From a virus: 15,363 bases of DNA. The stretch's first letter is position 1. Each line of letters begins with the position of its first letter. Below, one piece after another: positions 2,674 to 7,134 of this stretch. The stretch lies in the UHGV virus genome UHGV-0120107; one strand, written 5' to 3'. The notes beneath the pieces are model-generated. The model was given only the letters and a program-made list of their open reading frames with translations, was not told the DNA's origin and did not search any database. Made by a program: the position numbers and the translations under genes.

Positions 2674-3333
2674 TTAACTAAATGTCTCTTCAGGCCACTG
2701 GCTAGCGATAACTTTCCCTACTACGGAACAGCTATCATTGCATGGAATCATTGGATATTGCGGGTTTAGTGGTTGTAGGAACACCTGACCGCTATCCCTG
2801 ATCAGTTTCTTGAAGGTAAACTCGTCACCACCAAGTCTGGCTATGCAGAAATCACCTGGCTCAACAGCCTGCTCAGGGTCAACGAGAATTAACATCCCGT
2901 CAGGAAAGCTTGGCTTGGATCCTGTTGGCGCGGTCATGGAATTACCTTCAACTTCAAGCCAAAACGCACAATCACTGGCTTTTTTGGTTGTGCTGACCCA
3001 TCTCTCCGCATCACCTTTGGTAAAGGTTCTAAGCTCAGGCGAGAACATCCCGGCCTGAACATGAGAAAAAACAGGGTACTCATATTGTTTTTTAACGGGG
3101 GCAGATGAGTATTCGCCAACAGGTGAAAATGTACCGTCGTGGTTGAATGAGACGTTATCAATACCAAGGTATTTAAACACCACACCAATCTCGTCAAGAG
3201 ATGGATGACGAGATCCGCGCAACCAGTGACCAATTCCACCCTGCGTCATACCAAGCTCTTCGGCTAACTTCTCTTGAGTTATGCCGAGCTCTTTCATTCT
3301 GGATCTAGCCAGTTCATACCATTTCATTTTCAT
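2674..3333 (-). CDS. cI: CI-type prophage repressor (HTH N-terminal domain plus LexA/S24-like C-terminal domain), hybrid immunity
   Basis: C-terminal two-thirds (...[38 protein letters not shown]... [18 protein letters not shown]) closely matches lambda CI as I recall it. The N-terminal 60 aa ([37 protein letters not shown]...) is a different HTH. Start placed at ATG 3333 (AAGGG RBS) rather than the track start at 3375. Confidence 0.85.
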
Positions 3334-3344
3334 ACCCTTATTAT

Positions 3345-3414
3345 TACGATCTGTACTAAAATCATCCATGCACAAGATGTATTTTTTGTTTGCATTCTAA
3401 AAGTACATATCGTA
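3345..3414. promoter_or_regulatory. OR operator region: two copies of a 12-bp operator-like motif
   Basis: TACGATCTGTAC at 3345..3356 and its reverse complement form GTACATATCGTA at 3403..3414, between the divergent cI and cro genes. The same motif occurs once at OL (2523..2534). Confidence 0.5.
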
Positions 3415-3444: not shown

Positions 3445-3660
3445 ATGAGCAACCTACGAAAATATCGAGAGTCACTGAATATCTCTCAAACAACACTTGC
3501 TAAGGCAGTTGGATGCACACAGGGAGCTATCGGACATTGGGAATCTGGTCGTCGCTTCCCAGACCTTAAAACATGCCGTGCTCTTGTTGCGTGCCTAAAC
3601 AAGTTAGGCGCAAAAGTCAGTCTTGATGACGTGTTCCCGCCGGAACACAAAGCCGCTTAA
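3445..3660 (+). CDS. cro: Cro-like HTH repressor (71 aa)
   Basis: ATG at 3445 with GGAGG RBS, divergent from cI. HTH motif QTTLAKAVGCTQGAIGHWESGRRFP shares TQG[GA]IGHW..G.R.P with the CI N-terminal domain. The 128-aa track ORF from 3274 is an upstream extension through the operator region. Confidence 0.75.
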   Translation: MSNLRKYRESLNISQTTLAKAVGCTQGAIGHWESGRRFPDLKTCRALVACLNKLGAKVSLDDVFPPEHKAA

Positions 3661-3670
3661 TAAGCGGATC

Positions 3671-3716
3671 CGCTCTTTGTAACAACGGACATTCGTCCTA
3701 CGTCGCTGAAAAGCGA
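3671..3716 (+). promoter_or_regulatory. nutR candidate (boxA-like plus boxB hairpin)
   Basis: CGCTCTTTG at 3671..3679 (boxA consensus CGCTCTT(T)A), then hairpin TCGCT-GAAA-AGCGA at 3703..3716, just downstream of cro. Confidence 0.5.
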
Positions 3717-3800: not shown

Positions 3801-4100
3801 ATGACACAAGCAAGTTATAGCAAGCCAACACAGCGAGAAATTGATCGCGCTGAAACTGATTTACTCATCAACCTGTCAACGCTTACCCAGCGCGGTCTGG
3901 CAAAGATGATTGGCTGTCATGAATCGAAGATAAGCAGAACGGACTGGAGGTTTATTGCTTCGGTCTTGTGTGCTTTTGGAATGGCATCAGACATCAGTCC
4001 GATTAGCAGGGCTTTTAAGTATGCGCTTGATGAAATCACCAATAAAAAACGCCCGGTGTGCAAGACCGAGCGTTCTGAACAAATCCAGATGGATTTTTGA
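3801..4100 (+). CDS. cII: CII-like transcriptional activator (99 aa)
   Basis: C-terminus ...TNKKRPVCKTERSEQIQMDF matches lambda CII (...TNKKRPAATERSEQIQMEF) as I recall it. Gene order cro-cII-O fits. Confidence 0.8.
   Translation: MTQASYSKPTQREIDRAETDLLINLSTLTQRGLAKMIGCHESKISRTDWRFIASVLCAFGMASDISPISRAFKYALDEITNKKRPVCKTERSEQIQMDF
3810..3823 (-). promoter_or_regulatory. Candidate CII-binding site (TTGC-N6-TTGC) of a pRE-like promoter
   Basis: Plus strand GCAAGTTATAGCAA, which is TTGC-N6-TTGC on the minus strand, inside the first codons of cII and oriented toward cro/cI as for lambda pRE. Confidence 0.4.
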
Positions 4101-4145
4101 GTCACTGTGTTACGTCAACAACACATTCAACAGGAGTAATTATAT
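4041..4145 (-). ncRNA. oop-like antisense RNA with its promoter and terminator
   Basis: Minus strand: perfect -10 TATAAT (plus 4139..4144), then about 85 nt downstream a hairpin CGCUCGG/CCGGGCG (one G-U pair) followed by UUUUUUAUU (plus 4043..4072). The terminator lies in the 3' end of cII, as for lambda oop. Confidence 0.5.
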
Positions 4146-4290
4146 GCGAAAGCAGCAGGAAAATAAACGCGTTAATCACCGAAAAGATGTGCTTCGTGAC
4201 CAGTTCTATCAGCAGGTAAATCCTGCCATCGCGGCACCATTGCGGGAGATGCTAAACAAGCACAAAAAATCGGAGGTTAGCCATGAGTAA
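4144..4290 (+). CDS. Small basic hypothetical protein (48 aa) between cII and the replication genes
   Basis: ATG at 4144 preceded by AGGAG. Translation MRKQQENKRVNHRKDVLRDQFYQQVNPAIAAPLREMLNKHKKSEVSHE. Its stop overlaps the start of the O-like gene. Confidence 0.45.
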   Translation: MRKQQENKRVNHRKDVLRDQFYQQVNPAIAAPLREMLNKHKKSEVSHE

Positions 4291-5146
4291 CGTAGCATAT
4301 GCAAACTTCGGGGATAACCGCTCCCCGGTGGAGAAGAAAGTGGCGCAACTCGAAGATGGTTATTCGCGCCTTGCCAATGAGCTTCTTGATGCAACCATGC
4401 GATCAGGTCTGCCTGAGACAGAGCTGTGCATCCTGATGGCTGTCTGGCGCAAGACATACGGATTCAACAAGAAATTAGACTGGATCAGCAATGAGCAATT
4501 CGAGGAGATGATTGATAAACATTACACCCATTGCTCAACAGCTAAAAATAACCTCATCAGACGGAAGGTGTTGATTCAGGAAGGCCGCAAAATCGGTATG
4601 AACACTAACATTTCCGAGTGGCAAACAAAAAATAACGGATTCTGCAAAACATTAGCTAAACCTGCTAAGAAAACCTTAGCGGAACATGCTAATACCATTA
4701 AGCAGAAGTTGCTAACCACAAAAGACAATATTACAAAAGACAAGAAAGACATTAAAAACACATTGCCCGAACAAGTTCAGGCGGTGGAGGAAAAACCGTC
4801 TCAGCCTGCAAACAAAAACCAGGTCATCGATGACGCATTCGAAAACATCTTCTGGCTTGCAGGAATGCGTAAGCTGGAGAAGAAATCATCCAAGTCAGCT
4901 TTCAGAACTCAATATCAGATATGGCGTCGCGATAACGGCGGAACCCCAGAGGAATTTGCCACGTTCCTTGCAGGAGATATTGCATCTCGTGTTGGAAAGC
5001 AATTCGGCTTCGATAAGCTTCACCCATCAACGTACCTCAACGGTCAGCGCTGGAACGACGAGAAGCCAGAAACTATTCAACCACAATCCAAACCATCATC
5101 CGCAATCACCGTATCGAAAACTGGCTACGTGTTTTTCGACAGGTGA
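4283..5146 (+). CDS. Replication initiator, lambda O-like (287 aa)
   Basis: GGAGG RBS. N-terminal domain (...LEDGYSRLANELLDA...LMAVWRKTYGFNK...NISEW...) resembles lambda O as I recall it. The C-terminal half is divergent. Confidence 0.8.
   Translation: MSNVAYANFGDNRSPVEKKVAQLEDGYSRLANELLDATMRSGLPETELCILMAVWRKTYGFNKKLDWISNEQFEEMIDKHYTHCSTAKNNLIRRKVLIQEGRKIGMNTNISEWQTKNNGFCKTLAKPAKKTLAEHANTIKQKLLTTKDNITKDKKDIKNTLPEQVQAVEEKPSQPANKNQVIDDAFENIFWLAGMRKLEKKSSKSAFRTQYQIWRRDNGGTPEEFATFLAGDIASRVGKQFGFDKLHPSTYLNGQRWNDEKPETIQPQSKPSSAITVSKTGYVFFDR
4650..4755. repeat. Candidate replication origin inside the O-like gene (short repeats plus A-rich tract)
   Basis: GCTAA repeated at 4655, 4664 and 4688, with the inverted copy TTAGC at 4676 and a palindromic TTAGCTAA. 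AAAGACA repeated three times at 4721, 4736 and 4745 in an A-rich tract. Lambda ori lies at the equivalent mid-gene position. Confidence 0.3.
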
Positions 5147-5149
5147 ACC

Positions 5150-5257
5150 ATGAAATCAAAAATCAAATCGCTACTGGTCGCTGGTTATAACCACGGCTGG
5201 TTAAGTATTTCGTTTGTCGATTTCTGGTTTAAAAATCTCAATCAGAGGGAATCATGA
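5150..5257 (+). CDS. Possible small ORF (35 aa) coupled to the primase/helicase gene
   Basis: ATG at 5150 with AGGTGA upstream. Its stop overlaps the primase ATG (ATGA). Hydrophobic (MKSKIKSLLVAGYNHGWLSISFVDFWFKNLNQRES). May be spurious. Confidence 0.2.
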   Translation: MKSKIKSLLVAGYNHGWLSISFVDFWFKNLNQRES

Positions 5258-7134
5258 GGCCAAGTGAACTCAGCGACCTGCTTTGGGCGCAGGTTGACAG
5301 GGTGGCTCCGCACCTGTTGCCAAACGGCAAGAAAGAGGGGCATGAGTGGGTTGCCGGTAACGTCAACGGCGACAAGGGAAACAGCCTTAAGGTCAACCTT
5401 AGCGGCAAGAAAAAATGGGCTGATTTCGCCGAGGGAGACGGCGGTGACATGCTTGATTTGTGGATGGCATGTCGTGGAATTAACCTGCATCAGGCTATGC
5501 AGGAAGCGAAAGCATTTCTCGGTATCAAGGATGACGATCACCATTTCGATGCCAAACGTGAGAAAAAATTCTCCAGACCTGATCGCAAGAAAATCGCCCG
5601 CTACGTTACCAGAACAGAATCCCATCTTGAGTACCTGCAATCGCGTGGCATATCGCCAGAAATCGTAAAGCGCTACGAGGTTGTCAGCGGCAAGGTGTGG
5701 AATGGAGAGCGGGAACTGGATGCTCTGGTGATTCCGTACAAACGCGATGGTGAGTTGTTGCAGGTCAAGCGAATCAGCACTGAGCGCCCGGACGGGAAGA
5801 AAGTCATTATGGCAGAAGGTGATTGCGAACCTTGTCTGTTCGGATGGCAGGCTCTGGACGCTGGCGTGAGGGCGGTTGTGCTTTGCGAAGGCGAAATTGA
5901 TTGTATGAGCTATGCGCAATACGGCATCTCGGCGTTATCCGTGCCGTTTGGTGGCGGGAAAGGCGCTAAGCAGCAGTGGATTGAGTTTGAGTATCACAAC
6001 CTCGACAGGTTTGAGGAAATATTCATCTCGATGGACGTTGATGATGTTGGTCGTGAAGCCGCAAGGGAAATCGCAAGCCGACTCGGTGAACATCGTTGCC
6101 GTCTTGTTACTCTGCCGTACAAAGACATCAACGAATGCCTGATGAACGGTGTTACCGAGGATGAAATCTGGCAGTACATCGGCACGGCATCCTACTTCGA
6201 TCCTGAAGAACTCTACAGCGCGCGAGAGTTTTACCAGGACACTATCAACGCTTTCTACGGCAAGCAGCAGTATCTGTTTAATCCACCGTGGGAATCTCTG
6301 GCAGATAAATTCCAGTTCCGTGAGGCAGAGTTGACGCTGGTCAATGGTGTGAACGGTCACGGAAAAACGGAGGTTGTCGGGCATATGGCACTTGAGGCAA
6401 TGCGTCAGGGTGTGAAGACGTGCATCGCGTCACTTGAGCTGAAGCCTGGTATTCTCCTTAAGCGCCTTACCCGTCAGGCGACGTGCTGCAAGATGCCGCC
6501 AGTGCTGGAAATTGACTCTGCATTTAAATTTTATGACGAAAGACTTTGGGTGTTTGGTCTGACCGGAACGGCGAAAGCCGACAGGCTGATCGAAATATTC
6601 GACTACGCTCGCCGCCGATACTGGATCCAGTTATTCATCATCGACAGCCTGATGAAATGTGGCATAGGCGACGATGACTATAACGGGCAGAAGGCGTTTG
6701 TTGACTCGATTTGCGACTTCAAAAACAAAACAAACTCCCACGTCATTCTCGTTACTCACTCGCGAAAAGGAGACAGCGAAGAAAAACCAACCGGGAAAAT
6801 GGACGTAAAAGGCTCTGGAGCGATAACAGACCTGACAGACAACCTTTTCATCATCTGGCGTAACAAGGCTCGCGAGAGAGCGTTACAGAGAGTTCAGAGT
6901 GGTGAAAAGATGTCAGAGAAGGACGAACAGCTACTGGCATCTCCGGCATCTGTTTTGATGCTTGAAAAGCAACGTAACGGCGAAGGTTGGGAAGGTGGTG
7001 TCCCGTTGTTCCTTGACGAGCAATCGCACCAGTTCCTGCAACTTGAATCAGGATCGCCATATAGCTACATCGCCAATATGCCGAAATCGGAATATGACGA
7101 GGCGTGGCGACAGGAAAACGTGACGGAGTATTAA
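5254..7134 (+). CDS. Fused DNA primase (Toprim) / DnaB-family helicase replication protein (626 aa)
   Basis: RBS AGAGGGA. Toprim-like motifs (VVLCEGEIDCMSYAQYG and FISMDVDD). Walker A NGVNGHGKTE and Walker B-like LFIIDSLM in the C-terminal half. Takes the place of lambda P or P22 gene 12 after the O-like initiator. Confidence 0.8.
   Translation: MRPSELSDLLWAQVDRVAPHLLPNGKKEGHEWVAGNVNGDKGNSLKVNLSGKKKWADFAEGDGGDMLDLWMACRGINLHQAMQEAKAFLGIKDDDHHFDAKREKKFSRPDRKKIARYVTRTESHLEYLQSRGISPEIVKRYEVVSGKVWNGERELDALVIPYKRDGELLQVKRISTERPDGKKVIMAEGDCEPCLFGWQALDAGVRAVVLCEGEIDCMSYAQYGISALSVPFGGGKGAKQQWIEFEYHNLDRFEEIFISMDVDDVGREAAREIASRLGEHRCRLVTLPYKDINECLMNGVTEDEIWQYIGTASYFDPEELYSAREFYQDTINAFYGKQQYLFNPPWESLADKFQFREAELTLVNGVNGHGKTEVVGHMALEAMRQGVKTCIASLELKPGILLKRLTRQATCCKMPPVLEIDSAFKFYDERLWVFGLTGTAKADRLIEIFDYARRRYWIQLFIIDSLMKCGIGDDDYNGQKAFVDSICDFKNKTNSHVILVTHSRKGDSEEKPTGKMDVKGSGAITDLTDNLFIIWRNKARERALQRVQSGEKMSEKDEQLLASPASVLMLEKQRNGEGWEGGVPLFLDEQSHQFLQLESGSPYSYIANMPKSEYDEAWRQENVTEY

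Follow-up and report, generated by a model that had tools for sequence, protein, structure and literature searches.

The window analyzed here, the whole 15,363-nucleotide stretch of the viral genome UHGV-0120107, represents the immunity and early-right portion of a mosaic lambdoid phage, the nearest phage record sharing just 51% of it. The gene order cI-cro-cII-[ORF48]-O was confirmed through Pfam searches, a Cro-like HTH gene being present between the cI-like and cII genes, and the other genes of relevance are positioned as follows.

2674 to 3375, minus strand: cI-like repressor gene
3801 to 4100, plus strand: cII gene, 99 aa, phage-21-type (Pfam PF05269 [Phage_CII], E value 4.6e-35; PHROG 191)
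4144 to 4290, plus strand: 48-aa ORF (ORF48), start codon ATG at 4144 to 4146 (PHROG 1913, E value 4.9e-18)
4283 to 5146, plus strand: O-like replication initiator gene (PF04492, E value 1.1e-33; also by PHROG search)
5254 to 7134: gene for a Toprim/DnaB-like protein

The initial annotation had described an antisense unit resembling lambda oop RNA, with a hairpin inside the 3' end of cII, and the Pfam and PHROG assignments of the ORF at 3801 to 4100 bear out its identity as CII. The unit (4043 to 4144) lies on the minus strand while the cII and O-like genes are both on the plus strand, as is the case for lambda oop, and its putative promoter, pO, and the O-like gene are convergently oriented. 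No near-identical copy of positions 4020 to 4300 was found among 5,426 complete Escherichia coli genomes, the best full-length match being approximately 80%.

The 48-aa ORF matches PHROG 1913 over its full length, the label of that family, "tail protein," being implausible at such a position. Homologs in the same slot, at 83% identity, were retrieved by tblastn from 17 phage records, where they are mostly unannotated; carriers include Min27, Stx2a phages, Salmonella SI5/SF6-type phages, and Klebsiella phiKp_30. The stop codon of this ORF and the beginning of the O-like gene share bases (ATGAGTAA at 4283 to 4290), an overlap which suggests that the two genes may be translationally coupled.

Downstream of the cro-like ORF, the plus strand harbors a palindrome, CCGCTTATTAAGCGG (3653 to 3667), followed by the boxA-like CGCTCTTT (3671 to 3678) and a boxB-like hairpin, TCGCT-GAAA-AGCGA (3703 to 3716), and the plus-strand segment from 3653 to 3716 is a probable nutR site for an N-type antiterminator. 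An iteron search of the O-like gene detected no lambda-style four-iteron origin array at the settings used, the sole direct repeat being a 21-nt pair (4458 to 4478 and 4635 to 4655) which is 81% identical and 177 bp apart.

Predicted promoter and RNA of the antisense unit

The elements assigned to the unit, all of which are on the minus strand, are listed below.

4167 to 4162, minus strand: best −35 candidate, TTTATT; 17-nt spacer, 3/6 match, weak
4144 to 4139, minus strand: pO-like −10 hexamer, TATAAT; aligns with CATAAT of lambda pO, with a first base complementary to the A of ATG 4144
4131 to 4043, minus strand: predicted oop-like RNA of approximately 89 nt; 5' G assigned by homology to lambda +1 (record position 38675), 3' end U6A
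4125 to 4106, minus strand: 5' hairpin, UGUGUUG-UUGACG-UAACACA, in the minimum free energy (MFE) fold; inserted module
4096 to 4081, minus strand: small central hairpin, AAAUCC-AUCU-GGAUUU, in the MFE fold
4076 to 4044, minus strand: tO-like intrinsic terminator, from terminator scan and fold, with covariation in relatives

The perfect minus-strand TATAAT originally noted at 4139 to 4144 is indeed present and overlaps the ATG at 4144 to 4146 by one base. It is followed by 7 nt and a G (4131) whose counterpart in the alignment is the mapped 5' terminus of lambda oop. A perfect −10 in the homologous position is here combined with a −35 matching at three of six positions and with no extended −10 (TGn). 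A consensus promoter scan did not call the pO site at 4144 to 4139, because just three of the six −35 positions match. As TATAAT occurs twice in the window against 5.75 occurrences expected, its presence is not significant alone, and hexamer frequency was dropped as a statistical argument; the site is judged to exceed chance because of its homology to lambda and its comparative conservation, not because of a motif count.

The hairpin and U6 tract reported at 4043 to 4072 were likewise recovered (core at 4072 to 4050, U6 at 4049 to 4044), whereas the accompanying distance of about 85 nt was not, the −10 being separated from the T run by 90 nt. In the core stem of this GC-rich hairpin, CGCTCGGT (4072 to 4065) pairs with ACCGGGCG (4057 to 4050) across the loop CTTGCAC (4064 to 4058); A/G:U pairs extend the stem to 4076/4046, and an A at 4043 follows the T6/U6 tract (4049 to 4044). 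The hairpin at 4076 to 4046 and its T run were found independently by the terminator scan of the minus strand.

The predicted RNA is perfectly complementary to the last 55 coding bases of cII and its stop codon (58 nt) and to 31 nt of the cII/ORF48 spacer, which, as in oop, places an intrinsic terminator inside cII and approximately 50 nt of complementarity at the cII 3' end. Its MFE is −28.6 kcal/mol (z = −2.78), compared to −28.5 kcal/mol (z = −4.27) for lambda oop. The 5' end is uncertain by approximately 3 nt, as reads of P22 oop begin 3 nt further in (PMC13397905). Rfam yielded no family at the gathering threshold and, at permissive thresholds, only subthreshold matches to unrelated small RNA models overlapping the terminator region; Rfam 15 appears to hold no oop model, for which reason a curated family score is lacking. 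A minus-strand coding interpretation, represented by a 62-aa GTG ORF (4105 to 3917), was rejected, as this ORF extends across the terminator and lacks a ribosome-binding site.

Relationship to lambda oop and other oop RNAs

Lambda oop is a 77-nt RNA which extends from pO to tO, overlaps 52 bases of cII, and promotes RNase III-dependent decay of cII mRNA (PMC5869508, PMC3985674, PMC5488031); an RNase III-dependent decrease in cII mRNA and CII activity is credited to Krinke and Wulff (1987 and 1990), as cited in PMC5869508 and PMC3985674. The minus strands of the window and of the lambda reference (NC_001416, positions 37900 to 39700; oop, complement of 38599 to 38675) were aligned. The lambda strand reads TTGAGT-17-CATAAT-GACTCCT-G, the G being +1 (38675), and terminates 77 nt downstream in GGGCGUUUUUUA (38599), while the window strand reads TTTATT-17-TATAAT-TACTCCT-G (4131) and 89 nt later ends, as in lambda, in GGGCGUUUUUUA (4043).

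Alignment of the two RNAs produced 68 identities over the 77-nt lambda RNA, with an identical U6A end. These are concentrated in the 3' 51 nt of the window RNA, which begin at UCCAUCUGG and in which 47 of 48 aligned bases equal lambda oop/tO, the sole further difference in this part being three extra loop bases in the window. These bases represent one additional cII codon, located in the terminator loop, and account for a cII overlap of 55 coding bases in the window versus 52 in lambda, the latter being the published figure (PMC5869508). The alignment, the shared −10-N7-G geometry, and the equivalent cII overlap together identify the unit, previously only likened to oop, as a true homolog of lambda oop.

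The two systems further agree in their leftward orientation between cII and a replication gene and in their terminator stem and U6A. In both, moreover, the −10 overlaps the downstream start codon, since the lambda CATAAT contains the O start codon; the overlap with ORF48 for which a coupling had been suggested is correctly described, yet general to the family and not special to this ORF. They differ in the length of the RNA (89 nt predicted versus 77 nt), the −10 (TATAAT without TGn versus TGT-CATAAT), the −35 (TTTATT, 3/6, versus TTGAGT, 4/6), the terminator loop (CTTGCAC in the window, unlike the lambda form), and the downstream gene (the 48-aa ORF versus O). The most extensive difference concerns the 5' 38 nt of the window RNA, which are only partly alignable with lambda (21 identities). 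Here, stem-loop I of lambda is replaced by the UGUGUUG/UAACACA hairpin insert, and CUGGAU, which pairs with a 5' GAUCCAG in lambda, instead forms a small local hairpin in the window.

This replacement also affects a LexA-type CTG-N10-CAG box, present in lambda as CTGTTGATAGATCCAG at −2 to +14 and absent from the window, where the CTGT and ACAG half-sites are split apart by the hairpin insert. A LexA site within oop-pO is attributed to Lewis et al. (1994), as cited in PMC5869508, and we infer that the CTG-N10-CAG box corresponds to it. The box is carried by 47 of 68 distinct units and is thus a property of lambda and many of its relatives and not a family-defining one.

Homologs of oop have been observed by RNA sequencing in P22 (a 63-nt RNA; PMC13397905) and prophage BTP1 (PMC7067206), and sequences similar to oop have been noted in Stx phages (PMC5488031). 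P22 oop and OOP-BTP1 resemble the window unit in position and in their antisense relation to a cII-family gene (c1 in P22), although the P22 RNA differs in its terminator stem (GCCUCAA/UUGAGGC), has a 5' end of the lambda type (GAUUGAUCCAG), and is shorter than that of the window. Stx and phage 21-type phages (e.g., Min27 and lambda imm21) share with the window a phage-21-type cII (86 to 95% amino acid identity) and its terminator allele, in which the CGCTCGG and CCGGGCG arms flank a TCTTGCACA insert. Min27 additionally shares the TATAAT −10 and a homolog of the 48-aa ORF, but its type of RNA is predicted to be approximately 68 nt long and to be devoid of the window's 5' hairpin. No oop feature was annotated in any of the annotated phage records examined.

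Conservation and modular exchange among relatives

Searching with a 19-nt anchor located within the RNA yielded 116 usable units, including those of the window and lambda and derived almost entirely from IMG/VR contigs, of which 65 were distinct. Across these units, the 3' half and tO are nearly invariant, the loop occurring in two alleles, whereas variation in the 5' body and in the DNA upstream of the −10 (on the plus strand, the downstream gene) involves entire modules. As the anchor biases the sample, loci were also retrieved by means of the CII protein, from annotated phages and one genome per species. This yielded prophages of Hafnia, Shimwellia, E. albertii, Symbiopectobacterium, Pectobacterium, Superficieibacter, Pseudescherichia, Atlantibacter, Phytobacter, and Yokenella, spanning approximately ten enterobacterial genera, in which CII identity falls to as little as 30%, yet the cII 3' end invariably contains a stable antisense hairpin followed by a T run. 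In most loci, the start of the T run precedes the end of the stop codon by 48 to 56 nt, the distance being 33 to 34 nt in one subgroup (L136 to L138). The stems themselves differ among relatives, being represented by CGCTCGG/CCGGGCG, ATCCTCGG/CCGGGGAT, GCCTCAGC/GGTCGAGGC, CGTCCAG/CTGGACG, ATCCGCG/CGCGGAT, GCGCTCTG/CAGGGCGC, ATCCCCA/TGGGGAT, and CGCTCAG/CTGGGCG.

Covariation was assessed by projecting the 12-bp hairpin of the window onto unfitted MAFFT alignments, A3 and A4, and counting pairs, with the following results.

Cells in standard pairs: A3, 84.8%; A4, 90.6%
Cells paired after column shuffles: A3, 74%; A4, 77%
Cells paired with partners slid by 1 to 3 columns: A3, 37 to 54%; A4, 42 to 59%
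Pairs showing compensatory changes (of 12): A3, 6; A4, 7
Cells changed on both sides (expected): A3, 23 (8.2); A4, 28 (7.5)
Shuffles reaching the covariation score: A3, 0/500; A4, 0/500

The T run, furthermore, is kept despite loss of the Lys-Lys codons, as in L136, where the protein reads ...NEKRP... and the codons are GAA AAA. Taken with the covariation, this retention across a codon change indicates that the terminator is selected as an RNA and DNA structure beyond coding constraint.

Conservation is also apparent on the promoter side. At the position equivalent to the lambda −10, 45 of the 68 distinct units carry CATAAT and 14 carry TATAAT, such that (C/T)ATAAT is found in 59/68, ahead of approximately seven unrelated downstream genes. 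Of the remaining nine distinct units, six are vector copies of lambda t0 (within L161 to L168, e.g., a pSEVA plasmid), which possess the terminator and no −10 and serve as a negative control. An extended −10 (TGn) precedes CATAAT in 44 of the 45 units, again across approximately seven unrelated downstream genes, and forces codon 2 of these replication-module genes to be NCA, a promoter constraint acting within coding sequence (e.g., L001, L007, L011, L069, L123, L135, and L159). In TATAAT units, among which is the window, TGn is never present, and in a group found via the 5' hairpin the hexamer is TAAAAT with unchanged N7-G spacing. The −35 is weak nearly everywhere (3 to 5 of 6). This pattern is the expected trace of a real, −10-dominated promoter and would be hard to explain by a translation initiation region alone.

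The 5' hairpin of the window recurs in other loci. A search whose pattern fixed the stem sequence located it in 19 IMG/VR contigs as well as in L159, a Phytobacter prophage, the partners to which it is joined there including at least four terminator alleles and four or more downstream genes. One locus, L185, possesses the exact promoter, ORF48 start, and 5' body of the window, with a different cII 3' end. The window oop is, therefore, one recombinant of known modules and not singular. The underlying spacer motif, TGTGTTG(N1-6)CGTAACACAGTGAC (CACTGTGTTACG... on the plus strand), is seen in the window (4101 to 4131), L159, L136 to L138, and L170 to L188. Joined as it is to several cII 3' ends and downstream genes, it behaves as an independent mosaic module, which may act in the oop RNA, in the pR mRNA immediately upstream of the ribosome-binding site, or as a protein-bound inverted repeat. 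A CRP-type reading of this inverted repeat was discarded upon inspection by eye, its spacing (TGTG-N12-CACA, N9 in relatives, versus N8) being wrong. More generally, these comparisons suggest that each of the four parts (promoter, 5' body, terminator allele, and downstream gene) reassorts independently among phages.

Some retrieved sequences are of a different nature. Lambda-identical cII/oop was encountered on short, low-coverage contigs from unrelated taxa (Shewanella, Kitasatospora, Bradyrhizobium, Ruminococcus, and others; loci within L141 to L158 and L161 to L168), which most likely represent lambda DNA contamination. Cloning vectors (L161 to L168) carry the lambda t0 stem, as found in the window, and matches limited to the last 21 CII residues represent lambda t0 terminator cassettes of such vectors (e.g., pSEVA237M).

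Proposed role of the unit and its significance

By analogy with lambda, the locus very probably encodes a functional oop unit which acts on cII. In this scheme, a sigma-70-dependent pO (−10 at 4144 to 4139, with its weak −35) would fire leftward against the pR transcript, starting at approximately G4131, and transcription would cease within cII at the intrinsic terminator (4072 to 4050 plus U6 at 4049 to 4044). The resulting RNA of approximately 89 nt would pair with pR mRNA and the duplex would be cleaved by RNase III, as in lambda, such that cII mRNA and CII protein would fall and the phage would be biased toward lytic growth. Polymerases originating from pO may also, as in lambda, collide with pR transcription entering the replication genes (lambda mechanism: PMC5869508, PMC3985674, PMC5488031, PMC12197685). 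Because the 5' 38 nt are unlike those of lambda, the behavior of stem-loop I, RNase III processing, and RNA decay may not transfer to the window RNA.

The collision component could itself be the principal function, pO interfering with pR transcription into ORF48, O, and the primase-helicase genes and so tuning replication initiation, as in the "dual promoter" model of lambda, in which case the RNA, terminated at tO, would be mostly a by-product. In lambda, a −10 mutation which inactivates pO reduces plasmid copy number and pR read-through increases, while the level of oop RNA itself has little effect on replication (PMC3985674). In the window, moreover, the −10 coincides exactly with the translation start of the gene that opens the replication operon, and among relatives the −10 is kept ahead of many different replication modules. 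Such a role is compatible with an antisense function, both being documented in lambda, but it leaves unexplained why the terminator is always inside cII, affording 50 to 58 nt of complementarity, and not in the spacer, nor did the search of the O-like gene detect an iteron array that would place an origin nearby. Promoter interference as the main task is regarded as conceivable, albeit unlikely.

A considerably less probable proposition, which we deem very unlikely, is that the unit is an inactive relic that gives rise to no RNA of consequence. The hairpin and T run would then persist through coding for the CII C terminus (the degradation tag NKKRP...TERSEQIQM) and through a recombination junction, the TATAAT being no more than AT-rich spacer between a Shine-Dalgarno sequence and the ORF48 ATG. 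The weak −35, the uncalled promoter, and the lack of TATAAT enrichment accord with this, as does the importance of CII C-terminal residues for FtsH proteolysis (PMC5869508). The block is also near identical in DNA among phages whose cII is otherwise 37 to 41% identical, as would be expected from mosaic exchange. Coding constraint on cII and inheritance of the cII 3' end and spacer as a single mosaic unit could account for part of the conservation. Nevertheless, compensatory changes maintain the stem where the protein sequence diverges, and the T run outlasts the change of Lys codon. The −10, furthermore, is kept or upgraded in diverged spacers, with TGn falling within codon 2 of unrelated genes, for which coding constraint offers no explanation, and the window hexamer is a perfect consensus while the active lambda pO has CATAAT.

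Another primary function, be it action in trans on host or phage targets, leftward priming of replication, or peptide coding, is scarcely credible: the 5' 38 nt do constitute a separate mobile hairpin module and a role for oop in priming replication was once proposed (PMC3985674), but the primer idea was experimentally rejected in lambda (PMC3985674), and the RNA lacks a ribosome-binding site, its only ATG frame being three codons long.

A functional oop unit acting on cII is, then, the preferred reading, and the RNA is of a known kind, a classic lambda regulatory RNA whose identification is ordinary. The only mildly new aspect would be its modular 5' hairpin subtype, which has no LexA-type box. 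It is possible, though we hold the view only tentatively, that the window oop represents a distinct modular subtype in which a mobile 5' cassette (TGTGUUG...CGUAACACAGUGAC) has taken the place of stem-loop I and the LexA-type operator, combined with a consensus TATAAT in place of the extended CATAAT. Were this subtype functional, oop synthesis would be uncoupled from the SOS response, and the structured 5' end could alter RNA stability or RNase III processing, thereby providing a differently wired input into the choice between lysis and lysogeny.

A mosaic phage carries a classic lambda regulatory RNA that is recognizable from its arrangement alone, a finding which adds little new biology, while the alignments assembled here could seed an Rfam model of oop. 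They portray oop as being built from reassorting modules, namely, the −10 type, a 5' body with or without the LexA-type box, and a terminator allele. This modularity predicts phage-to-phage differences in the SOS and RNA decay input to the cII decision, including among Stx phages, in which that decision controls toxin release.
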